Origin: Escherichia coli
GTDB taxonomy: Bacteria; Pseudomonadota; Gammaproteobacteria; Enterobacterales; Enterobacteriaceae
Direction: 5' to 3' (one strand)
DNA: 64,000 bases
Assembly (NCBI RefSeq): GCF_044324785.1
Contig: NZ_CP172128.1
The stretch's first letter is position 1. Every line of letters begins with the position of its first letter. A program made the position numbers and the translations under genes. The notes below the pieces were generated by a model, which made no database searches, had not been told where the DNA came from, and saw nothing but the letters and a program-made list of their open reading frames with translations. Below, piece after piece: positions 3,644-19,616 of the stretch.

Positions 3644-4980
3644 TGAGCTGGCCCCCTGAAACACCAGACAGTAGATGTATCTTAAAATAAGAGGTAGGCT
3701 TGGATATATGTCTAACACTAGTTCTAATTTTGAGATGGCTGGCGTTTTGTTAGGAAAAGAGGTGCGTAAACGTAAAACACCTCAGGAAAAAATCACAATT
3801 ATTCAACAGACTATGGAGCCAGGCATGACGGTGTCTCACGTGGCGCGTTTGCATGGAATTCAGCCCAGCCTGTTGTTTAAGTGGAAAAAACAATACCAGG
3901 AAGGAAGTCTCACTGCTGTGGCTGCGGGTGAAGACGTTGTTCCTGCTTCTGAACTGGCCGCTGCGATAAAGCAGATTAATCAGCTTCAGCGTTTACTGGG
4001 CAAGAAAACAATGGAAGTTGAGCTCCTCAAAGAAGCGGTGGAGTACGCGCAATCGCGAAAATGGATAGCGCATGTGCCCTTGTTACCTTCGGACAAGGAA
4101 TAGCCCCGGTAAGCCGTGTTCTGGGCGTGTCGCGTGCGCAGTTAACATTACGGATGAAGGCATCTGATAACAAGACAGATAAACGGCGTCAGAGACGCGA
4201 TGAGGCTGCGGATGCAGAAGTCTTATCGCGCATCCTGGATATCATTGGCGATATGCCAACATATGGGTATCGCCGTGTCTGGGCGATACCCAGACGGCAG
4301 TCCCGAAATGAAGGCCTGCCGTTCGTGAATGCAAAACGCGTTTACCGGATAATGAGCGAAAACAGCCTGTTGTTGTTGCATGACAAACCATCACGACCTC
4401 AGCGGGCACATAAAGGCCGTGTAGAGGTTAATAAAAGCGACCAGCGTTGGTGTTCCAATGGCTTTGAGTTCGGTTGCGATGATGGCGAAAAAGTCCGGGT
4501 TACGTTCGCCCTGGACTGTTGCGATCGTGAAGCTATCGACTGGGCAGCCAGTACGGGAGGTTACGATAAATCGACAGTGCAGGATGTGATGTTAGGCGCG
4601 ATAGAAAAACGCTTTGGCGATAAAGTGCCGGAACAGTCGATCCAGTGGCTGACAGATAACGATTCAGCGTACAGAGCGCATGAAACACGGCAGTTCGCCA
4701 GAGAGCTGAATCTGGAGCCCTGTACGACGGCAGTCAGCAGTCCTCAGAGTAATGGAATGGCAGAACGGTTCGTGAAAACGATGAAGGAAGACTACATCGC
4801 GTTCATGCCGAAACCGAATGTAAGAACGGCAGTGCATAACCTTGCAGTGGCGATCGAGCATTATAACGAATGGCATCCGCATAGTGCACTGGGTTATCGC
4901 TCGCCACGGGAATATCTGCGGCAGCAGGCCAGTAATGGGTTAAGTGATAACAGGTGTCTGGAAATATAGGGGCAAATCCA
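3644..4980 (+). mobile_element. IS3-family insertion sequence, IS2-like variant (orfA 3675-4103, orfB 4061-4969)
   Basis: overlapping orfA/orfB typical of IS3 family; orfB C-terminus and right end (GGAAATATAGGGGCAAATCCA) identical to IS2; left end TGAGCTGGCCCCCTGAA resembles IS2 IRL; no clear target duplication. Confidence 0.7.
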
Positions 4981-7925: not shown

Positions 7926-9631
7926 GCAAATAATGCGCGTCAGCGCATGTAAGGCGGCACTCCGTTGTTGCATATGGCACAGGAGTAAAACCGCCGAAGC
8001 CCGGCGTAAGCCGGTACTGACTGATAGATTTCACCTTACCCATCCCCAGCCCTTGTATGTAATAGGACTCGATGGCTAGCTACCATCATATGAAGCAGAG
8101 TGAGCTTGTCCCAGCCCTGAACAGTCAGACTTTGATTAGCAGCAAAAGCCCTCTGCTTCACCTTTCACGCCAGCATTAACATTGAACGGTTGCCAAGAGC
8201 GATGACTCTGCATGTACAAGGGGAATAGGCGTGATGGTTTGGTGAAAGGAGAATATTCATGTTTCAGTTAGGTATTGATGTCAGCAAGAAAACGCTGGAT
8301 TTGTGCCTGCTGCGCGAAGGCGTAAAAGGCAGAGTTAAAACCCGAAAGCTTCAGAATGATATTAATGCTGTCAGCGCGGTAATAGCCTGGCTCAGTAAGC
8401 AACATTGTAAACCTGAAGATGTCCATATCATCATGGAAGCCACTGGTGTTTATCATGAATCACTGGCTTACGGGCTTCACAAAGCCGGGGGCCGGATATC
8501 ACTTGCCAACCCACACAGGGCAAGAGAGTTTGCCCGGGGTATGGGAATGCTGACCAAAAATGACCGGGTTGATGCTTATATGCTGGCTTGCTATGGCGTG
8601 CTTAAAGCACCGGAGCCATGGCTTCCTCCACCGGAAGAAGTCCGCCATCTCAGTGCACTGCTCCGCAGACGTGATGCTCTTGTGGCTGACAGTACTCGCG
8701 AAAAAAACAGGCTGGAAAAATACCTGGCAACAGACACACCTTCTGTTATAGCTGAATCCGTAGAGGCAATGATTGGTCAGTTGAACGCAGAAATTAAACG
8801 TCTGGACAGACTGATCCGTTCACACCTTAACCAGCATCCTGAATTAAAAAAGGATTTTGACCTGCTGACGTCAATAAAATCCGTAGGTTATCAGTTAGGT
8901 CTGAATATGCTTGTCATCCTGCGGAGCCATGATTTCGCCACAGCAGAACAGGTGGCTGCATTTTTAGGTGTCGTTCCCGTTGAAAAATATTCCGGCACCT
9001 CGGTCAGAGGGTGTCCGAAACTGTCAAAAATTGGTCCGCCGGAAATCCGGGCGAAACTGTATCTGGCTTCGTTGTGTGGTCTGAGATTTAACCCATTGAT
9101 GAAAGCGATGTATGAGCGATTATGCCTGAGAGGTAAGGGCAAAATGTGTGCCATTGGTGCGCTGATGAGAAAACTCGTGCACTGGTGCTATGGCGTACTG
9201 AAGACCCAAAAACCGTTTGATGTGGGCTATTTGCCTTCATATGCGCGTAGCGCATGTAAGGCGGCATGATGTAGTTACATATGGTACAGGAGTAAAACCG
9301 CCGAAGCCCGGCGTAAGCCGGTACGTATTGATAGGTTTCACCTATCCCATCCCTGCCCTGCGAGGCCATACGGGCTTTCAGCGATGATGAAGTATAGGTA
9401 AGCCCTTTTAACCCCGTTAGCGCGGCTATGCCGCGCTGTATCGGGGACTTAGTGCTGACAGCTTGCTGGCAGTACTTAGGGGGCTGTACGTCGGAGTTCA
9501 AGCGATTTTTCTTGACAGAACACGGTAGCTGCTAAGCCATACCCGCTTTCAGCCATGAGAGAGCTTCTGTGCGCGGTCGGAGTGGTCCCGACGAGGGTTT
9601 ACCCGAAGTCGGGACGTATCTCCGCGTTAGC
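7926..9631 (+). mobile_element. IS110-family insertion sequence (boundaries uncertain)
   Basis: contains the IS110-type transposase; ~100-bp imperfect direct repeats at 7926-8040 and 9240-9345; highly structured non-coding tail 9270-9631. Confidence 0.4.
8259..9269 (+). CDS. IS110-family transposase (DEDD-type recombinase)
   Basis: 336 aa, N-terminal MFQLGIDVSKKTLDLCLL characteristic of IS110/IS1111 transposases. Confidence 0.8.
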   Translation: MFQLGIDVSKKTLDLCLLREGVKGRVKTRKLQNDINAVSAVIAWLSKQHCKPEDVHIIMEATGVYHESLAYGLHKAGGRISLANPHRAREFARGMGMLTKNDRVDAYMLACYGVLKAPEPWLPPPEEVRHLSALLRRRDALVADSTREKNRLEKYLATDTPSVIAESVEAMIGQLNAEIKRLDRLIRSHLNQHPELKKDFDLLTSIKSVGYQLGLNMLVILRSHDFATAEQVAAFLGVVPVEKYSGTSVRGCPKLSKIGPPEIRAKLYLASLCGLRFNPLMKAMYERLCLRGKGKMCAIGALMRKLVHWCYGVLKTQKPFDVGYLPSYARSACKAA

Positions 9632-9699
9632 GGGGTCAGTTTGGAATTCGGAAAATAAACCATGTTAAGACTATTTTTTAGCCAAAGGGCTTTCAGGAA

Positions 9700-9840
9700 T
9701 CGCCAGAATGGCGGGACAACAGTGGTTTTGGTGTCCGAAATCGACCGGTTTCGGACATTGTTAAACAGATATATCCGAAAGTCAGCGAAATTACTTTCGG
9801 ACATGCATTATAATATGTACACCCATTTCGTACAGAAGAT
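9700..9840. promoter_or_regulatory. res-site-like repeats upstream of tnpR
   Basis: palindromic subsites TGTCCGAAATCGACCGGTTTCGGACA and CCGAAAGTCAGCGAAATTACTTTCGGACA. Confidence 0.45.
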
Positions 9841-9846
9841 CTCACT

Positions 9847-10437
9847 ATGTCTCGAATTTTTGCCTATTGTCGGGTTTCCACTCTGGAACAGACGACCGAA
9901 AATCAACGTCGGGAAATCGAAAGCGCGGGTTTTAACGTCAGACCCCAACGAATAATCGAAGAACAAATTAGTGGATCAGTAGCAGCCAGTGAACGTCCAG
10001 GTTTTAACCGGTTGCTTGATCGTCTGGAAAGTGGCGATGTATTGATAGTCACAAAACTGGATCGCCTCGGTCGTAATGCAATGGATATCAGGAAAACAGT
10101 GGAGCAACTGACCGAATCTGGCATCAGGGTACATTGCCTGGCATTAGGTGGTGTTGATCTGACCAGTCCGGCAGGAAAAATGACAATGCAAGTGATTTCA
10201 GCGGTCGCTGAATTTGAACGAGATCTTTTACTTGAACGAACTTATTCAGGGATAGCAAGAGCACGGGATGCAGGAAAACGTTTTGGTCGCCCACCGGTAT
10301 TAAATGAAGAACAAAAACAGAAGGTACTCGAACACATTAAGTCTGGGGGAAGTATAAGTGCTATTGCCAGGGAATTCCGAACCACACGGCAAACAATTCT
10401 GAGAGTTAGAGCGAAACAGCAAACTGTTACTGTATAG
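9847..10437 (+). CDS. tnpR: serine resolvase TnpR
   Basis: 196 aa; catalytic N-terminus [11 protein letters not shown]; C-terminal HTH; Tn3-family resolvase architecture. Confidence 0.8.
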
Positions 10438-10483
10438 AAAATAGTCTTAGCGTGGGATATTTTCCGTTTTCCAAGCGGACCCC

Positions 10484-10680
10484 AAGGAAGACTACATCGC
10501 GTTCATGCCGAAACCGAATGTAAGAACGGCATTGCATAATCTTGCAGTGGCGATCGAACATTACAATGAAAACCATCCGCACAGTGCGTTGGGTTATCGC
10601 TCTCCGCGAGAATATCGACGTCAGCGGGTAACATTAACTTAAGATACAACCCCTGTCTGGAAATAAGGGGGCAAGAACAC
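10484..10680 (+). pseudogene. 3' fragment of IS2-like orfB transposase with right-end remnant
   Basis: near-identical at nucleotide level to 4785-4980 of the IS2-like element; begins abruptly at the mini-element IR. Confidence 0.55.
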
Positions 10681-10791
10681 ATTGACACTGTAAATATGGC
10701 ATTGTATAAAACCCCGCGATAATAATGAGTTTCATTTGCATTACTCCCATTTGCTGGTCATCCACTCGCCTGTTTACAAGGATAGCGTTTA

Positions 10792-11790
10792 ATGAAGAAG
10801 GTCCTTTGCGCGTTAGGCTTGATGTTCACCGCCGTCAGTTCCGCGCTGGCAACAACCTACCCCCTGACGATTGAAAACTGCGGCTATCAGGAGACCTTCA
10901 CCCGGCCGCCGGAGCGCGTGGTCGCGCTGGGGCAAAATACGGTCGAAATTCTGCTGCTGCTCGGGCTGCAAAAGCAGGTGGTCGCCAGCGCCTTCTGGCC
11001 GACCAGCGTTTTACCGCAGCTGGCTGAGCAAAACGCGAAGATTAAAACCTTGACGGTGGAAATTCCGAGCCTGGAATCGGTGCTGGCGCAAAATCCTGAT
11101 TTCGTTCCCGCCCAGTTGCCGCTGCTGCTGGGGCCGGAAAGCAAAGTCGCCAGGCGTGAAGATCTCGCCACCGTCGGCGTGAACAGCTACGTCTCACCGG
11201 GGGTGTGCGCCACCAAAAAGGCCACCGGCGATATGTACGGCAGCCGGCAAAAGCTGTGGGATATGACCTGGCTGTATCAGGAAATTAGCGATTTTTCCCG
11301 CATTTTCAACGTCGAAGATCGTGGTCAGGCGCTGATTGCCGATTTCAAAAAACGTGAAGCCGACCTGCGCCAGGAGTTTGGTAAAAGCAAAAAGGATCTC
11401 TCCTTCGTCTTCTGGTTCTCCAGCGCCTCACCTTCGGCCGATGCCTATGTCGGCGGCAAAAACAGCGCCTCCGGATTTATCGCCAGCGTGCTGGGCGGAC
11501 ATAATGCGATTACCTCCGAAACCGAGTGGCCCACGGTGAGCTGGGAGAGCATTATTGCCGCCAACCCGGATGTGATCGTGGTCGCCAGCCTGGATCGTAA
11601 CCGCTGGGCGCTGGATAAAGCCGAGGAGAAGATCAAATTCCTCAAAAGCGATCCCGCCGTCAGCCAGCTGGAGGCGGTGAAAAAAGGCCATATCGTGGTC
11701 ATGGACGGTCAGGCGATGAATCCGACCATTCGCACGCTTTACGGAGCGGAGCAGGTGGGCGAGCAGCTGAGAAAAATGGGGCTGAACTGA
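10792..11790 (+). CDS. ABC transporter periplasmic substrate-binding protein (iron/siderophore type)
   Basis: 332 aa with signal peptide; followed by FecCD-type permease and ATPase genes. Confidence 0.7.
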   Translation: MKKVLCALGLMFTAVSSALATTYPLTIENCGYQETFTRPPERVVALGQNTVEILLLLGLQKQVVASAFWPTSVLPQLAEQNAKIKTLTVEIPSLESVLAQNPDFVPAQLPLLLGPESKVARREDLATVGVNSYVSPGVCATKKATGDMYGSRQKLWDMTWLYQEISDFSRIFNVEDRGQALIADFKKREADLRQEFGKSKKDLSFVFWFSSASPSADAYVGGKNSASGFIASVLGGHNAITSETEWPTVSWESIIAANPDVIVVASLDRNRWALDKAEEKIKFLKSDPAVSQLEAVKKGHIVVMDGQAMNPTIRTLYGAEQVGEQLRKMGLN

Positions 11791-12827
11791 TGAGCGTCGG
11801 CGCGATTGAGACGTGCCGCAGCATACTGCTCACCGGCTGGTGTGTACTGGCAGCGATCGTGCTGGCGCTGGTGATCGCTGTGGGCGTCAGCGTTGGCGAG
11901 CTGGCCATCCCGCTGCAGAATGTCTTTTATGCTATCAGCAACAGAACCGGCTTAACCGCTGAGCCGCTCAACCGTATCTATGAGAGCGTTATCTGGGATT
12001 TCCGCCTCAGCCGCGCGCTGGTCGCCGCCTGCTGCGGCGCCGGCCTCGCTATCTGCGGTGTCGTGCTGCAAAGCTTGCTGAAGAATGCCCTCGCCGAACC
12101 CTACGTCCTCGGCGTCTCCGCCGGGGCCTCCACCGGCGCGGTGTCGATCGTGGTGCTGGGCCTTGGCTCTGGCGCAATTTCCCTCTCGGCAGGCGCCTTT
12201 GCCGGGGCCTTCGCCGCCTTCGCCTTTGTCGCCTTGCTGACTAACGGCGCGCGCGGCGGCAATGAGCGTACGATTCTTGCGGGCGTCGCCGCCTCGCAGT
12301 TATTTAACGCCATCACGGCCTATACCATCAGCACCACCGCCAGCGCGCAGCAGGCGCGCGATGTGATGTTCTGGCTGCTGGGCAGCTTCAGCGGCGTCCG
12401 CTGGCCCGAATTCCAGTTGGTCATCGTGGTGGTGCTCGCGGGTCTGGCGGTCTGCCTGTGGTATGCCCGGGCGCTGGACGCGTTCACCTTCGGCGACGAT
12501 GCCGCCGCCTCGCTGGGGATTGCTGTGCCGCGCGTGCGCCTGATCCTCTTCACCACTGCGGCGCTGATCACCGCCACCATCGTCAGCATGGCCGGCTCAA
12601 TCGGCTTTGTTGGCCTGGTGGTGCCGCACGTGATGCGTTTCTTCTTTGGCCCGCTGCACCGAACGTTGCTGATCGCCAGCGCGCTGGCAGGGGCGATATT
12701 GATGGTACTGGCGGACATTGCGTCGCGCCTGCTGATTGCCCCGCAAAGTCTGCCCGTTGGGGTAGTAACCGCCCTGGTTGGGGTGCCTTTCTTTGCCGTG
12801 ATTATCTACCGCTCAAGGAATAAGTGA
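11790..12827 (+). CDS. ABC transporter permease, FecCD family
   Basis: 345 aa, multi-pass hydrophobic, FecCD-like conserved glycine-rich segments; start overlaps upstream stop. Confidence 0.75.
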   Translation: MSVGAIETCRSILLTGWCVLAAIVLALVIAVGVSVGELAIPLQNVFYAISNRTGLTAEPLNRIYESVIWDFRLSRALVAACCGAGLAICGVVLQSLLKNALAEPYVLGVSAGASTGAVSIVVLGLGSGAISLSAGAFAGAFAAFAFVALLTNGARGGNERTILAGVAASQLFNAITAYTISTTASAQQARDVMFWLLGSFSGVRWPEFQLVIVVVLAGLAVCLWYARALDAFTFGDDAAASLGIAVPRVRLILFTTAALITATIVSMAGSIGFVGLVVPHVMRFFFGPLHRTLLIASALAGAILMVLADIASRLLIAPQSLPVGVVTALVGVPFFAVIIYRSRNK

Positions 12828-13588
12828 TGAGTATTTGCGCTGAAAATATCACCTGGAAGGCAGGCAAAAAGGTCATCGTCAATAATGTCTCGCTGCGGGT
12901 GCCGCGCGGAGAAACGGTCGGACTGCTGGGGCCCAACGGCTGCGGCAAATCCTCGCTGCTGCGCGTTCTGGCGGGCCTGCGCCGCCCGGATGCAGGTCGC
13001 GTCACCCTCGACGGCCAGGATATCGCCCGGATGGCGAAAAAGCAGCTCGCCCGCCGCGTGGCTTGCGTCGAGCAACACGGCATGACCGAGGCCAATATGC
13101 GGGTGCGCGACGTCGTGCGCCTGGGACGCATTCCCCACCACTCTCCGTTCTCAAACTGGAGCGCTCAGGATGACGAAGCGATTGCCGCCGCGCTGCAGCG
13201 GGTAGCGATGCTGGAGAAAAGCGAACAGGGATGGTTAAGCCTCTCCGGCGGCGAGCGGCAGCGGGTGCATATCGCCCGCGCGCTGGCGCAGAGCCCGAGC
13301 GAAATCCTGCTGGATGAGCCGACCAACCATCTGGATATACACCATCAGATGCAGTTAATGCAGTTGATCAGCGAGCTGCCGGTAACCAGCATTGTGGCCA
13401 TTCACGATCTTAACCATGCCGCGATGTTCTGCGATTCGCTGATCGTGATGCAGCAGGGGCAGATCCTCGCCAGCGGGACGCCGGAGGAGATTTTGTCCGA
13501 AGCGCTGCTGTGGGACGTTTTCCGGGTGAAAACCAAAATCGAGATCTCCCCTTACCACGGCAAAAAGCACATTCATTTCATCGTTTAG
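12824..13588 (+). CDS. ABC transporter ATP-binding protein
   Basis: Walker A GPNGCGKSS, signature LSGGERQR, Walker B LLDEPT. Confidence 0.85.
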   Translation: MMSICAENITWKAGKKVIVNNVSLRVPRGETVGLLGPNGCGKSSLLRVLAGLRRPDAGRVTLDGQDIARMAKKQLARRVACVEQHGMTEANMRVRDVVRLGRIPHHSPFSNWSAQDDEAIAAALQRVAMLEKSEQGWLSLSGGERQRVHIARALAQSPSEILLDEPTNHLDIHHQMQLMQLISELPVTSIVAIHDLNHAAMFCDSLIVMQQGQILASGTPEEILSEALLWDVFRVKTKIEISPYHGKKHIHFIV

Positions 13589-13599
13589 GTTGGGCGGAT

Positions 13600-14832
13600 A
13601 TGCCTCTTTTCTCCCTGCGCCCTGCGGCAACCCTCTGGCCTCCGGTGTTACTGGGAAGCCAGTTCGTTTTTAATATTGGCTTTTACGCGGTCGTACCTTT
13701 CCTCGCCCTCTTCCTGCGCGACGACATGCTGCTCTCAGGCGGACTTATCGGCCTGATCCTCGGGCTGCGTACCTTCTCCCAACAGGGGATGTTTATCCTC
13801 GGCGGGACGCTGGCCGACCGCTATGGCGCTAAGGCGATCATTCTCGCCGGCTGCGTCGTTCGCGTCGCCGGTTTTCTCCTGCTGGCGTGCGGGGCGTCGC
13901 TGTGGGCCATTATCCTTGGCGCCTGCCTGACCGGCGTCGGCGGCGCCCTGTTCTCCCCGTCGATAGAGGCCCTGCTGGCGCGGGCCGGTACCCACAGCCA
14001 GGCCAACGGGAAACGCAGCCGCGCCGAGTGGTTTGCGCTGTTTGCGGTATGCGGTGAACTGGGAGCGGTGATCGGCCCGGTGGCCGGAGGCGTGCTGAGC
14101 GGGATCGGCTTTCGACATATCGCCCTCGCCGGCGCGGGAATATTTCTTCTGGCGCTGGCGGTGCTCTTTTTCGGTCTGCCCGCCGACGGGCACACGACAA
14201 CAACGCGCAGACGAGTCCCATGGTGGACGCCTTTGCGCCAGCCGCGCTTTGTCGCGTTTATTCTCGCCTACAGCTCATGGCTGTTGAGCTACAACCAACT
14301 CTACCTCGCTCTGCCGGTGGAGATCCAACGTTCCGGCGGCCGCGAGCAGGATCTGGCGCCGCTCTTTATGCTGGCCTCGCTGTTGATTATCACCCTCCAG
14401 CTCCCTCTCGCCCGCTTCGCCCGGCGAATGGGCGCCGTGCGCATCCTGCCGGTGGGCTTTCTGCTGCTGTCGGCTTCCTTTGCCAGCGTGGCGTTATTCG
14501 CCGCCGCCCCACCCGCCGAAAGTTGGCTGCGGTTAATGCCGGCGGCTGGTTTTGTCACGCTGCTCACCCTCGGCCAGATGCTGTTAGTGCCCGCAGCCAA
14601 GGATCTGATCCCGCTGTTCGCCGAGGAGTCGACGCTGGGCGCCCACTACGGAGCGCTCGCCACCGCAGGAGGGTGCGCGGTGTTAGCCGGGAATTTACTG
14701 CTCGGTCATTTACTTGACCAGGCGCTCATTCCGTCGCCGCAGGCGGTTTATCCCTGGCTTCTGCTGGCGCTGTTTCCGCTGTGCAGCGCCGTCGCCCTGC
14801 GGGCGATCTGTCGCCCGCTGGCGGCAACATGA
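13600..14832 (+). CDS. MFS transporter
   Basis: ~410 aa hydrophobic 12-TM-like protein; ATG at 13600 just after ATPase stop preferred over the 13510 ORF-track start, which overlaps the ATPase. Confidence 0.6.
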   Translation: MPLFSLRPAATLWPPVLLGSQFVFNIGFYAVVPFLALFLRDDMLLSGGLIGLILGLRTFSQQGMFILGGTLADRYGAKAIILAGCVVRVAGFLLLACGASLWAIILGACLTGVGGALFSPSIEALLARAGTHSQANGKRSRAEWFALFAVCGELGAVIGPVAGGVLSGIGFRHIALAGAGIFLLALAVLFFGLPADGHTTTTRRRVPWWTPLRQPRFVAFILAYSSWLLSYNQLYLALPVEIQRSGGREQDLAPLFMLASLLIITLQLPLARFARRMGAVRILPVGFLLLSASFASVALFAAAPPAESWLRLMPAAGFVTLLTLGQMLLVPAAKDLIPLFAEESTLGAHYGALATAGGCAVLAGNLLLGHLLDQALIPSPQAVYPWLLLALFPLCSAVALRAICRPLAAT

Positions 14833-14909
14833 CGCAGAGCGGGTAACAGCCCGCTCTGGAAGTGAACAGCTGGTATCCATATTTTCAGCTAATCCTTTAA
14901 CAAAGATCC

Positions 14910-15085
14910 TCAGCCCTGTTTAAACCCCGGCTTGCCGTTTTTGGCTCGCCATTCCTTCACTTCTTTTACGATACCTTCAGGACTGTCCTCACGGTCATCC
15001 CTTGGATAATAAATAAGATCAGAACCATCAGGGTGTTCAGCTAATCGACGAAATTCATCCACTAATTTATCGTCATCAGCCTCAG
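14910..15085 (-). pseudogene. colicin E-type DNase immunity protein (Im family), 3' fragment truncated by IS1
   Basis: minus-strand translation ...[41 protein letters not shown] matches the conserved C-terminus of Im2/Im7/Im9-type proteins; ORF enters IS1 end. Confidence 0.5.
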
Positions 15086-15853
15086 GGTGATGCTGCCAAC
15101 TTACTGATTTAGTATATGATGGTGTTTTTGAGGTGCTCCAGTGGCTTCTGTTTCTATCAGCTGTCCCTCCTGTTCAGCTACTGACGGGGTGGTGCGTAAC
15201 GGCAAAAGCACCGCCGGACATCAGCGCTATCTCTGCTCTCACTGCCGTAAAACATGGCAACTGCAGTTCACTTACACCGCTTCTCAACCCGGTACGCACC
15301 AGAAAATCATTGATATGGCCATGAATGGCGTTGGATGCCGGGCAACAGCCCGCATTATGGGCGTTGTCCTCAACACGATTTTACGTCACTTAAAAAACTC
15401 AGGCCGCAGTCGGTAACCTCGCGCATACAGCCGGGCAGTGACGTCATCGTCTGCGCGGAAATGGACGAACAGTGGGGCTATGTCGGGGCTAAATCGCGCC
15501 AGCGCTGGCTGTTTTACGCGTATGACAGGCTCCGGAAGACGGTTGTTGCGCACGTATTCGGTGAACGCACTATGGCGACGCTGGGGCGTCTTATGAGCCT
15601 GCTGTCACCCTTTGACGTGGTGATATGGATGACGGATGGCTGGCCGCTGTATGAATCCCGCCTGAAGGGAAAGCTGCACGTAATCAGCAAGCGATATACG
15701 CAGCGAATTGAGCGGCATAACCTGAATCTGAGGCAGCACCTGGCACGGCTGGGACGGAAGTCGCTGTCGTTCTCAAAATCGGTGGAGCTGCATGACAAAG
15801 TCATCGGGCATTATCTGAACATAAAACACTATCAATAAGTTGGAGTCATTACC
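15086..15853 (+). mobile_element. insAB: IS1 copy 1 (insA 15141-15416, insB 15335-15838)
   Basis: 768 bp, ends GGTGATGCTGCCAACTTACTG ... GTTGGAGTCATTACC; no flanking 9-bp duplication. Confidence 0.9.
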
Positions 15854-16048
15854 CGAACTAAAGAGGGGATGGCTGTTGCCCGTTCAAAGGGAAAATTGAA
15901 AGGAAAACAGCCTAAATTATCTGAAAAACAACAAAAAGAACTATGCCGTATGCGTGATACTGGCCAGTACTCTATCAGCGATCTAGCGGAACTATTTACC
16001 GTCTCGCGTGCAACGGTTTATCGAACACTTTCACGAGGACAAAAATGA
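15854..16048 (+). pseudogene. serine resolvase, C-terminal HTH fragment
   Basis: in-frame translation ...GKLKGKQPKLSEKQQKELCRMRDTGQYSISDLAELFTVSRATVYRTL... is a resolvase C-terminal domain; begins at IS1 end. Confidence 0.45.
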
Positions 16049-16307
16049 CCGATTTAACTACACAGCAACATCTAGTAAAAATTGTCCATGATTATGCCTG
16101 CCCTCAAAAGGGTCATGGACAGTCCATCAAAGGTTCAAATGGATTACATCTGCATTCAATACCCAGATTACTTCCGCTTTGCTAAATGGATAGAACGGTT
16201 GGCGTAGGGTATTGTTGATGGTGTAATTAAAGTTCCTAAAGATCATTAAAATATCAGATCGGAAATTTAGGCGGTTCCGGCGTAGAACCCAGAACCCCTT
16301 ATCCGAA

Positions 16308-17171
16308 TTATTGTTCAGTTAACTTCATTTCGACAAGTAAAGGTAAATGATCTGAGACAGATGCATATGGCTTACTTTCAGGGGTCGCTCTATCTGACGG
16401 TTTAGGAATATATACATCTTTAATGTCCCATTTTTGAGCATTTGATGTAAGTATATAATCAATTTTCCTGTCTGGATTCCATGATGGTGCCGTGTACTTC
16501 AATTCCTTATCAGTGTCATTGAACCATGCTGTTAAATCCAAGTACTCTGTTGATTGAGGTGGTAAATTAAGATCACCCACTATAATTGGAAGTGCATTTT
16601 TAAACTGCCAAGAAGAGAATTCTGTTTGAAGAGTTCTTACTTGCTCTGCTCGTAATGGCTGCGTAGTGAAGTCCAAATGAGTAGTTACTAACATAACAGG
16701 CGCAGGATAATTAGGGACATCAACTTCTACAGCACAGGCCGCTCTTTGCTCCGCACCTTTGATGTTAGGTAGTTCCATCCTTTTACTCAATTTCAAATCA
16801 TACTTAGACAGTACTGCTGTACCATATTCCCCACCATCATGATCTATAGCCTTGCAGAAGTAATAATTCATTCCCAACTTATTAGCTATATACTCTGCTT
16901 GATTGACTGGGTTAGAACCCTCTTTACTAAAGTTCTTACCAGAACGCCCAGTCATGTTATCAACTTCTTGCAGTCCAATAATATCAACATTCATTTTACG
17001 AATTGCTTCTACAATGGCATCAGTACTCCCCATTCTAGAGGCCATTATGTTATATGACCCAACACGAATACTATCGGTATCTGCTGGACCATCCATGAGG
17101 CGATCAGAAGCTAAAGTTGAAGAGGAAAGAACTATAAACCCTATAACCGCAGCAATGCTTGTTAATTTCAT
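16308..17171 (-). CDS. secreted endonuclease/exonuclease/phosphatase (EEP, DNase I-like fold) family protein
   Basis: 287 aa; N-terminal signal peptide; EEP-type motifs (GLQEV, VGDLN, C-terminal SDHLP); low-GC gene. Confidence 0.6.
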
Positions 17172-17192
17172 TTTTACACCTTGTTATTTTTG

Positions 17193-18523
17193 TAGACTGG
17201 CCCCCTGAATCTCCAGACAACCAATATCACTTAAATAAGTGATAGTCTTAATACTAGTTTTTAGACTAGTCATTGGAGAGCAGATGATTGATGTCTTAGG
17301 ACCGGAGAAACGCAGACGGCGTACTACACAGGAAAAGATCGCTATTGTTCAGCAGAGTTTTGAACCGGGAATGACGGTCTCCCTTGTTGCCCGGCAACAC
17401 GGTGTGGCAGCCAGCCAGTTATTTCTCTGGCGCAAGCAATACCAGGAGGGAAGTCTTACTGCTGTGGCCGCAGGAGAGCAGGTCGTTCCTGCCTCTGAAC
17501 TTGCTGCTGCCATGAAGCAGATTAAAGAACTCCAGCGCCTGCTCGGCAAAAAAACGATGGAAAATGAACTCCTTAAAGAAGCCGTTGAATACGGGCGTGC
17601 AAAAAAGTGGATAGCGCACGCGCCCTTATTGCCCGGGGATGGGGAGTAAGCTTAGTCAGCCGTTGTCTCCGGGTGTCGCGTGCGCAGTTGCACGTAATTC
17701 TCAGACGAACCGATGACTGGAAAGATGGTCGCCGCAGCCGTCACTCAGATGATACGGATGTGCTTCTCCGTATACACCATGTTATCGGAGAGCTGCCCAC
17801 GTATGGTTATCGTCGGGTATGGGCGCTGCTTCGCAGACAGGCCGAACTTGATGGTATGCCTGCGATCAATGCCAAACGTGTTTACCGGATCATGCGCCAG
17901 AATGCGCTGTTGCTTGAGCGAAAAACCGCTGTACCGCCATCGAAACGGGCACATACTGGCAAAGTGGCCGTGAAAGAAAGCAATCAACGATGGTGCTCTG
18001 ACGGGTTCGAGTTCCGCTGTGATAACGGAGAAAAACTGCGAGTCACGTTCGCGCTGGACTGCTGTGACCGTGAGGCACTGCACTGGGCAGTCACTACGGG
18101 CGGCTTCGACAGTGAAACAGTACAGGACGTCATGCTGGGAGCGGTGGAACGCCGCTTCGGCAACGAGCTTCCGGCGTCTCCAGTAGAGTGGCTGACGGAT
18201 AATGGTTCATGCTACCGGGCTAATGAAACACGGCAGTTTGCCCGGATGTTGGGGCTTGAACCGAAGAACACGGCGGTGCGGAGTCCGGAGAGTAACGGCA
18301 TAGCAGAGAGCTTCGTGAAAACGATAAAGCGTGACTACATCAGTATCATGCCTAAACCAGACGGGTTAACGGCAGCAAAGAACCTTGCAGAGGCGTTCGA
18401 GCATTATAACGAATGGCATCCGCATAGTGCACTGGGTTATCGCTCGCCACGGGAATATCTGCGGCAGCAGGCCAGTAATGGGTTAAGTGATAACAGGTGT
18501 CTGGAAATATAGGGGCAAATCCA
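17193..18523 (+). mobile_element. IS2 copy 1 (insC 17284-17649, insD 17607-18512)
   Basis: 1331 bp, IRL TAGACTGGCCCCCTGAATCTCCAGACAACC, right end ...GGGGCAAATCCA; 5-bp target duplication TTTTG on both sides. Confidence 0.9.
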
Positions 18524-18673
18524 TTTTGATAGTAAATTTACATATCAAAATAAATCATAAAATCGCTTTTTTTAGTGATAAAAACCTCAAAAACAAAAAC
18601 AATTAGTGATCAACATCTCATAAGTAGTACATTTATCAACCGTTCCATTAATGTTTCATTCTATCGCGAATTA

Positions 18674-19441
18674 GGTAATGACTCCAACTTATTGATAGTG
18701 TTTTATGTTCAGATAATGCCCGATGACTTTGTCATGCAGCTCCACCGATTTTGAGAACGACAGCGACTTCCGTCCCAGCCGTGCCAGGTGCTGCCTCAGA
18801 TTCAGGTTATGCCGCTCAATTCGCTGCGTATATCGCTTGCTGATTACGTGCAGCTTTCCCTTCAGGCGGGATTCATACAGCGGCCAGCCATCCGTCATCC
18901 ATATCACCACGTCAAAGGGTGACAGCAGGCTCATAAGACGCCCCAGCGTCGCCATAGTGCGTTCACCGAATACGTGCGCAACAACCGTCTTCCGGAGCCT
19001 GTCATACGCGTAAAACAGCCAGCGCTGGCGCGATTTAGCCCCGACATAGCCCCACTGTTCGTCCATTTCCGCGCAGACGATGACGTCACTGCCCGGCTGT
19101 ATGCGCGAGGTTACCGACTGCGGCCTGAGTTTTTTAAGTGACGTAAAATCGTGTTGAGGACAACGCCCATAATGCGGGCTGTTGCCCGGCATCCAACGCC
19201 ATTCATGGCCATATCAATGATTTTCTGGTGCGTACCGGGTTGAGAAGCGGTGTAAGTGAACTGCAGTTGCCATGTTTTACGGCAGTGAGAGCAGAGATAG
19301 CGCTGATGTCCGGCGGTGCTTTTGCCGTTACGCACCACCCCGTCAGTAGCTGAACAGGAGGGACAGCTGATAGAAACAGAAGCCACTGGAGCACCTCAAA
19401 AACACCATCATATACTAAATCAGTAAGTTGGCAGCATCACC
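18674..19441 (-). mobile_element. insAB: IS1 copy 2 (inverted relative to copy 1)
   Basis: 768 bp; insA/insB ORFs identical to copy 1; no flanking duplication. Confidence 0.9.
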
Positions 19442-19616
19442 CAAGGGGCCAGTCTAGCAGATTATGGTGCGCAGTTATACAACAGCAGTAATGAGGAGTC
19501 TACTATTTCTCTTGTTATGCCAGATGCAATTGAATGGAACGGAAAGAATACGCCAAGACGGCAATACATGATAAAATATATTGCCGTATTTAAATATTAA
19601 AATTTATTTTTGTAGA

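Follow-up and report, generated by a model that had tools for sequence, protein, structure and literature searches.

The questions raised by this locus are which system is encoded in a GC-rich island of an Escherichia coli plasmid and whether that system imports iron. The analyzed DNA, a stretch of 64,000 nucleotides herein referred to as the window, is part of a ColBM-type conjugative plasmid of poultry E. coli, close to pLH10-b-1-A. Segment 10677–14867 of the window is the already described eitABCD locus of APEC/ExPEC virulence plasmids. Along all of its 4,191 bp, it is 100% identical in nucleotide sequence to the type locus of pAPEC-O1-ColBM (NC_009837.1). Both PCR primers published for eitA (Mellata et al., 2012; PMC3251573) anneal without a mismatch, at 10876–10895 (+ strand) and 11251–11270 (- strand). 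The literature on eitABCD starts with the original description by Johnson in 2006, as cited in PMC3251573 and PMC2797631. Further eit plasmids include pChi7122-2 and pKF3-70. The cassette was found in approximately 4% of complete E. coli genomes, nearly all copies being plasmid-borne. The eitABCD of the window is already known, and the copy found here raises nothing new.

Four genes on the + strand were found in positions 10792–14832, encoding a binding protein, a FecCD permease, an ABC ATPase, and an MFS transporter (Table 1). An earlier note on this DNA had described an ABC system of the FecBCD/siderophore class with an MFS transporter downstream of it and with an IS fragment and IS1 as borders; the Pfam matches and the borders listed in Table 1 bear out this description. 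The corresponding open reading frames are 10792–11790, 11790–12827, 12824/12827–13588, and 13510/13600/13645–14832, with alternative starts for the last two. RefSeq names the genes eitA, eitC, and eitD, and the eitB product falls into the same 90% cluster as a UniRef entry that bears the name EitB. EitA has a Sec signal peptide, which ends at ...SSALA/TTYP. Against the NCBIfam equivalogs, EitA reached 696.1 bits (sider_BP_EitA, NF052484; cut-off 640) and EitC reached 518.7 bits (sider_ATP_EitC, NF052485; cut-off 485). For eitD, the ATG at 13600 is kept in five genera and agrees with the 410 aa of the RefSeq protein "MFS transporter EitD"; the start at 13645 (395 aa) is found in older annotations.

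Table 1. Features of the eit cassette and its borders, with positions in the window.
Feature	Position	Strand	Description and evidence
IS3-family remnant, left border	10484..10679	+	Transposase C-terminal end and right terminal repeat; six-frame translation
Klebsiella-matching segment, complete eit transcription unit	10677..14867	+	Hairpin as right end
Putative sigma-70 promoter	10682..10710	+	TTGACA 10682-10687, 17-nt spacer, TATAAA 10705-10710; read from sequence
Fur-box-like operator AATAATGAGTTTCATTTGC	10721..10739	.	Compared with GATAATGATAATCATTATC: 14/19 on - strand, 13/19 on + strand
eitA	10792..11790	+	Periplasmic substrate-binding protein, 332 aa; Pfam Peripla_BP_2 (PF01497) 1e-28
eitB	11790..12827	+	FecCD-family permease, 345 aa; Pfam FecCD (PF01032) 4.5e-86
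eitC	12827..13588	+	ABC ATPase, 253 aa; Pfam ABC_tran (PF00005) 7e-36
eitD	13600..14832	+	MFS transporter, 410 aa; Pfam MFS_1 8e-31
10-bp GC-rich hairpin	14835..14858	+	Directly after eitD stop; without U-tract
Bacteriocin (colicin-type) immunity gene, 3' remnant	14910..15085	-	Translation; cut by IS1
IS1, complete, 768 bp, right border	15086..15853	+	IS1 terminal repeats in sequence

The segment extends from just upstream of the -35 hexamer to the hairpin past eitD and thus comprises one minimal transcription unit. Klebsiella, Pantoea, and Kluyvera share both hexamers of the putative promoter, and Cronobacter shares them in part; TTGACA was already named as the -35 in PMC2797631. The -10, TATAAA, is without the conserved final T, and the promoter scan omitted TTGACA-17-TATAAA because it demands T at position 6 of the -10. 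The proposal of the scan itself, ATGGCA-16-GATAAT, was rejected, its GATAAT -10 not being conserved in Klebsiella. At the other end of the unit, no T-tract terminator was found after eitD by the terminator scan, in which the hairpin is unlisted because it has no T run. The RNA fold of 14826–14880 has an energy of -22.1 kcal/mol (z = -3.47).

A search for a Fur box upstream of eitA, proposed in the earlier note, returned the Fur-like box of Table 1, located by a scripted mismatch count between the -10 and the start codon of eitA. Three sites with at least 14/19 matches were found in the 64 kb, this box being one of them; no match to the exact Fur consensus at three or fewer mismatches was found in the window. 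A Fur site in the eit promoter had already been pointed out (PMC2797631). The leader was compared across six genera, represented by the E. coli plasmid, Klebsiella, Serratia, Pantoea, Kluyvera, and Cronobacter, and AATGAnTTTCATT, the core of the box, was the sole invariant block. Control of the eit operon by Fur is suggested by this leader. The Zur-box search of the window gave no match, and Zur control was ruled out for the eit copy of the window, although a distant relative has such a box.

The GC content of 10677–14867 is 0.613 vs. 0.504 for the remainder of the window, so that the island is as GC-rich as had been noted. In 500-bp stretches, the GC content is 0.55–0.68 over 10750–15000 and 0.39–0.52 in the flanks. 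The segment coincides with the highest value among all 4,191-bp stretches of the 64 kb (maximum 0.615, start 10800; mean 0.51, sd 0.047). In the comparison of genomes by nucleotide identity, the best match to the eit cassette was the Klebsiella pneumoniae chromosome. The high GC content is explained by this match, since the cassette is 98.4% identical over the whole segment to the GC-rich chromosome of K. pneumoniae (CP067826.1). K. quasipneumoniae matches the segment with 92.9% identity and the same end points. Chromosomal eit copies had been noted in Klebsiella MGH 78578 and 342 (PMC2797631).

The AF2 model of EitA (pLDDT 93.5) has the class III binding-protein fold, and Foldseek matched it to class III binding proteins with a probability of 1.00. 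All strong PDB matches of the model are proteins of this class, with heme, siderophores, B12, or molybdate as ligands. Both PDB phmmer and Foldseek placed structural-genomics orphans first, followed by binders of heme, molybdate, B12, and siderophores. The nearest solved structures are 4mlz, 4n01, 5cr9, and 4ljs, all orphans without an assigned ligand; the TM-score, normalized by target length, was 0.90 for 4mlz and approximately 0.8 for ShuT and BhuT, which bind heme. Additionally, EitA is under the cut-off for every ligand-defined equivalog family (hydroxamate, catecholate, citrate, heme, and B12). With orphan binding proteins as its nearest structures, EitA was assigned to no ligand class by sequence or fold, in line with the unclear substrate of the earlier note. 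That note had also named classification with non-metal substrates as an outcome that would speak against an iron-type importer. EitA does not classify in that way: metal chelates are the known ligands of its group, class III (Peripla_BP_2). By its fold, permease, and ATPase, EitABC is predicted to belong to the type II metal-chelate ABC importers.

In Gram-negative bacteria, a cognate TonB-dependent receptor gene near such an importer is usual, although not obligatory. No intact TonB-dependent receptor was found in the window, where only two open reading frames reach 650 aa (alpha-galactosidase and ParB), and the annotated genes of pLH10-b-1-A, the collinear plasmid, include none for siderophore biosynthesis, in agreement with what had been noted for the window. 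Likewise, no TonB-dependent receptor was found within 6–10 kb of eit in Klebsiella, Serratia, Pantoea, Kluyvera, and Cronobacter, and no chelator biosynthesis gene is linked to eit in the window or in these five genera. The flanks of eit in the five genera are unrelated to one another and gave no hints to the ligand. In the literature searched, no functional characterization of Eit and no iron or siderophore transport activity was found.

The known eitABCD cassette, with a proposed role in the Fur-repressed import of a ferric chelate and with EitD as proposed exporter or recycler, is very probably the best explanation of the locus. Under iron-sufficient conditions, the eit operon would be repressed by Fur bound to the operator that follows the -10. 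Under iron limitation, EitA would be exported to the periplasm and bind a metal chelate of low molecular weight, in all likelihood one of ferric iron. The loaded EitA would then dock on EitB2-EitC2, a type II (BtuCD/FhuBC-like) ABC importer, and the chelate would be carried into the cytoplasm. For EitD, a DHA1-like MFS protein that accompanies EitABC in all enterobacterial genera examined, export or recycling of the free chelator is the most likely role. Fur control, iron as the metal, the direction of transport, and the role of EitD are inferred. Several observations count against this explanation: the negative iron assays described below, the lack of a linked receptor or chelator biosynthesis gene in the genera examined, the orphan status of the nearest solved structures, a "putative F420-0" transporter as the next NCBIfam family, the match of no more than 14/19 for the Fur-like box, the -10 without its final T, and the zinc-type contexts of more distant relatives.

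A non-iron ligand, so that "iron" would be only a family-based label, is unlikely. Such a ligand could be a zinc, cobalt, or nickel metallophore, a corrinoid, heme, or a deazaflavin-like cofactor. In the study of Mellata et al. (2012; PMC3251573), an eit plasmid gave no signal on CAS agar, and growth in iron-limited medium was not improved by the plasmid, whether or not heme or hemoglobin was added. This missing iron phenotype would fit a non-iron ligand; the lack of benefit from heme counts against this reading. The second-best NCBIfam matches of EitA, EitB, and EitC all belong to the "putative F420-0 ABC transporter" set, and the heme, molybdate, and B12 binders that follow the orphans among the structural neighbors of EitA point in the same direction. 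The contexts of distant EitA relatives are heterogeneous, and some are of zinc type. A Zur box and DUF1826 are located upstream of a 37%-identical relative, a 61%-identical Paracoccus relative adjoins a gene annotated only as "GTP-binding protein" (a candidate COG0523-type one), and a Rhizobium relative is located downstream of a Mn/Fe-type metal ABC operon. The zinc-type contexts, however, belong to distant relatives, the substrate of which may differ, whereas the operator conserved in the six enterobacterial genera is Fur-box-like and no Zur-box match was found in the window.

Quite unlikely is a self-contained shuttle with no need of a receptor or a biosynthesis cluster, in place of a classical siderophore importer, in which EitD may export a metal-chelating common metabolite and EitABC may re-import the complex, or, alternatively, import of a plant- or host-derived chelate. 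If this were true, the EitA family would combine iron-type regulation by Fur in Enterobacterales with zinc-type regulation by Zur in its distant relatives. The negative published iron assays and the lack of linked receptor and biosynthesis genes in the genera examined allow this reading without lending it positive support.

For EitD, we prefer a role in export or recycling of the chelator. A multidrug or metabolite efflux pump that shares the operon and is unrelated in function to EitABC is a very unlikely alternative, although the best curated NCBIfam match of EitD is MdtH (multidrug efflux), followed by Tet-type pumps, all below the cut-off. The EitA relatives of Rhizobium and Paracoccus are found without an adjoining MFS gene, which would also fit such a pump. 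An unrelated pump is nevertheless hard to reconcile with the conservation of the locus: the A-B-C-D order is retained in Klebsiella, Serratia, Pantoea, and Kluyvera despite unrelated flanks, and in Cronobacter eitD is retained next to eitABC in a rearranged, divergently transcribed form. The identity of EitD is 69–93%. Moreover, the gap between eitC and eitD is 11 nt, consistent with co-transcription.

The cassette now sits among IS remnants. The IS3-family remnant on the left is cut on its left side by an element at 9632–10483, is an 89% match to the IS3-family copy at 4784–4916, and its end aligns with that of the IS3-family insertion at 18523; in RefSeq, it is a partial "integrase core domain" pseudogene. 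On the right, 218 bp containing the truncated immunity gene separate the segment from IS1. The region of NZ_CP025329.1 matching this gene remnant is annotated as "bacteriocin immunity protein". The IS1 element is annotated as an IS1A-family transposase, and a second copy, identical and inverted, was found at 18674–19442; this pair brackets another segment, 15086–19442, and not eit. A composite transposon or integrative island moving as a unit between flanking IS elements is extremely improbable as the source of the high GC content: IS sequences lie on either side of eit, and IS or tnpA flanks differ between plasmids in published comparisons (PMC3251573), but this reading was rejected because the flanking elements are unmatched (a truncated IS3-family remnant on the left, IS1 beyond an unrelated gene remnant on the right, the second IS1 copy further right and none left of eit, a different IS3-family element as the right flank in another plasmid), no same-IS pair with a target-site duplication was found around eit, and the Klebsiella chromosome match fully accounts for the GC content.

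Scoring of eitA–D as "virulence genes" of ExPEC/APEC is routine. Whether a marker in such wide use belongs to an iron system in the first place would be decided by defining its substrate and any fitness role. Among known siderophore systems, an MFS exporter, EntS, is paired with an ABC importer, FepBCDG, and systems of the EntS type sit beside biosynthesis genes. Eit resembles this pair in combining the genes of an MFS protein and of a chelate ABC importer, and differs from it in having no biosynthesis genes and in the weak match of EitD to EntS (1.6e-6). The same parts, namely a class III binding protein, a FecCD-family permease, and an ABC ATPase, are found in FecBCDE, FhuBCD, FepBCDG, and BtuCDF; in contrast to these systems, Eit has no linked TonB-dependent receptor and an additional MFS partner, and EitA is below all their cut-offs.

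The pESA3/pCTU1-type eitCBAD of Cronobacter has orthologs of eitA, eitB, eitC, and eitD (EitA 76% identical) and keeps the leader motif, but its MFS gene is divergent from eitABC and its DNA is approximately 73–77% identical. In the chromosomal eitABCD of K. pneumoniae, the gene order is identical and the high identity given above covers the whole unit. This locus differs in its context, which is fixed: a LysR-family gene adjoins it on one side and the gene pair Meth_synt_2/MesX on the other, and IS elements are absent. Finally, eit plasmids of the pAPEC-O1-ColBM type have the same four genes and the same promoter with a Fur-like site, and other eit plasmids have the RelE/ParE-resolvase-IS3 remnant upstream, as in the window. 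The cassette itself is the same as in the pAPEC-O1-ColBM-type plasmids, and the surrounding mosaic alone differs, with an IS110-family insertion upstream and IS1 and the immunity-gene remnant downstream.

The block at 10792-14832 is the eitABCD locus, which has been known under that name since 2006. All four encoded proteins score far above the Pfam gathering thresholds for their families. Over 4,191 bp, the block is 100% identical to pAPEC-O1-ColBM (NC_009837.1); this plasmid is one of the two in which eitABCD was first described (PMC3251573). The eitA PCR primers from the same study match at 10876-10895 and 11251-11270 with 0 mismatches. EitA and EitC exceed the NCBIfam equivalog cut-offs (696 vs. 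640 bits and 519 vs. 485 bits, respectively), identical genes are named eitA, eitC, and eitD in recent RefSeq records, and the permease belongs to the same 90% cluster as a UniRef entry named EitB. The start of EitD is disputed in public annotations, being placed at 13600 (410 aa) or, in older records, at 13645 (395 aa). The ATG at 13600 is most likely the start codon; it is conserved in five genera, used by current RefSeq, and located 11 nt past the eitC stop codon.

Coordinates of features in the eit region
Feature	Coordinates	Strand	Remarks
Truncated IS3-family element (left border)	10484-10679		transposase C-terminus and terminal repeat
Putative promoter upstream of eitA	10682-10687; 10705-10710		TTGACA, 17-nt spacer, TATAAA
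Fur-like box AATAATGAGTTTCATTTGC	10721-10739	-	14/19 vs. 19-bp Fur consensus
eitA	10792-11790	+	Peripla_BP_2
eitB	11790-12827	+	FecCD
eitC	12824/12827-13588	+	ABC_tran
eitD	ends 14832	+	MFS_1
Colicin-type bacteriocin immunity gene, 3' remnant	14910-15085	-	cut by IS1
Complete IS1 (right border)	15086-15853

An earlier note, made from the sequence alone, had described four transport genes with a GC content above that of the flanks, bordered by an IS fragment and IS1; all of these features were recovered. The GC content is 0.55-0.68 across the block and 0.39-0.52 on either side. The most GC-rich 4.2 kb of the whole 64 kb falls on segment 10677-14867, whose GC content is 0.613 vs. 0.504 for the remainder of the window. 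This composition is explained by a match to the Klebsiella chromosome: K. pneumoniae is 98.4% identical over exactly 10677-14867, and K. quasipneumoniae is 92.9% identical with the same end points. In Klebsiella, the operon has a fixed chromosomal place, with a LysR-family gene on one side and a Meth_synt_2/MesX pair on the other. The plasmid segment starts 2 or 3 bases past the IS3 remnant, a short distance 5' of the -35 box, and ends just past a 10-bp GC-rich hairpin (-22.1 kcal/mol, z = -3.5) located 3' of the eitD stop codon. The mobilized segment thus comprises a minimal complete transcription unit. A composite transposon was rejected because the IS elements on the two flanks differ. The island is separated from IS1 by 218 bp, which hold the immunity-gene remnant, left over from a previous plasmid context.

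The A-B-C-D cassette was also found on the chromosomes of Serratia, Pantoea, and Kluyvera, where its flanks are wholly unrelated. In Serratia, eitABCD (L010:6729-12042) lies ~0.8 kb downstream of smpB; the adjacent tmRNA gene is a classic hotspot for island integration. This location would fit horizontal mobility of the cassette among Enterobacterales chromosomes too.

In E. coli, the cassette was found in 218 of 5,426 complete genomes (224 plasmid and 5 chromosomal copies, all at least 99% identical). Except for IS3-family insertions, the window is collinear with pLH10-b-1-A, a conjugative plasmid of poultry E. coli typed IncK2/Z, on which colicin M and its immunity gene occur together with the colicin B immunity gene. 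Adjoining and truncating the IS3 remnant beside eitA is an ~850-bp element (9632-10483). The inverted repeats that bound this element are imperfect (49 nt, 82% complementary) and of the GGGG...GTTAAG type, which resembles Tn3-family ends. Its sole gene encodes a serine resolvase (9847-10437), with no transposase; the resolvase/IS3-remnant junction is common to another eit plasmid. Direct repeats (7942-8046 and 9249-9353; 105-120 nt, about 87-88% identical), possibly a duplicated target or element ends, flank an IS110-family transposase gene (8259-9269), a copy missing at the matching position of plasmid p1040a. The interval 15086-19442 is delimited by a pair of identical, inversely oriented IS1 copies. 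Between them lie an endonuclease/exonuclease/phosphatase-family gene (16308-17171) and an IS3-family insertion of 1.3 kb (17196-18523); the latter is not present in the otherwise collinear pLH10-b-1-A.

The family assignments of EitA, EitB, and EitC predict a type II (BtuCD/FhuBC-like) ABC importer whose periplasmic binding protein is of class III; the earlier interpretation of these families, with an MFS partner, was correct. The structure model of EitA is confident (pLDDT 93.5, pTM 0.90), and in the PDB it strongly matches only class III binding proteins. The closest are structural-genomics orphans without ligand (4mlz, 4n01, 5cr9, and 4ljs), followed by heme binders, MolA, BtuF, and siderophore binders, all similarly distant. 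EitA also falls under the cut-off for every ligand-defined NCBIfam family, the second-best family being a hypothetical "F420-0" transporter. Therefore, its ligand class is not assignable from these matches. Gene context does not settle the ligand either: no linked TonB-dependent receptor or chelator biosynthesis gene was found in the window, as the earlier note had stated, or in any genus examined. EitD is DHA1-like, with MdtH as the best NCBIfam match, below cut-off. Its retention beside eitABC across genera (69-93% identity) is an argument for counting it as part of the system, where its most plausible role would be export of the free chelator. The only experimental test of eit in the papers searched was negative for iron uptake: neither CAS agar nor growth under iron limitation, whether heme or hemoglobin was added or not, revealed a phenotype of the eit plasmid (PMC3251573).

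The Fur-box search upstream of 10792 proposed earlier yielded one of only three sites in the 64 kb scoring at least 14/19. A stricter promoter scan of the window omits the TTGACA/TATAAA pair, as its -10 hexamer does not end in T. In a leader alignment of six genera, conservation is confined to the hexamers and to the core AATGAnTTTCATT, the rest having diverged, and the Serratia box is nearer to the Fur consensus than that of the window. This phylogenetic footprint is consistent with Fur control, in agreement with the Fur site already noted in the eit promoter (PMC2797631).

A non-iron substrate is possible. A metagenomic EitA relative (locus L017, 37% identity) has a Zur-box match in its promoter (1072-1094; 3 mismatches, 0 expected by chance), a second Zur-like repeat overlapping the start codon (1139-1160), and a divergent DUF1826 gene alongside, which suggests that some members of the family are zinc-responsive rather than iron-responsive. 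A Paracoccus relative (61% identity) adjoins a gene whose sole annotation is "GTP-binding protein" and which may be of COG0523 type, and a Rhizobium relative lies downstream of a Mn/Fe-type ABC operon. These contexts belong to distant relatives, the enterobacterial eit operator is Fur-like, not Zur-like, and a Zur-box search of the window gave no match. Many EitA relatives (P0175, P0178, P0180, P0184, and others) are 600-730 aa long and match in two stretches, which points to a tandem pair of EitA-like domains. On one metagenomic contig (L013:2076-5102), three paralogous Peripla_BP_2 genes lie in a row, with an acetyltransferase and then an RND-type efflux set after them.

Little is added to published work: the precise limits of the mobilized unit, the 98.4% figure for K. 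pneumoniae sensu stricto, the operator footprint across six genera, and the result that the ligand is settled by neither the fold nor the gene context. The Klebsiella chromosomal copies, the movement of eitABCD as an isolated element, and the Fur-type promoter were reported in 2010 (PMC2797631). Unlike the co-oriented A-B-C-D genes of the window, the eit genes of Cronobacter plasmids include a divergently transcribed MFS gene.
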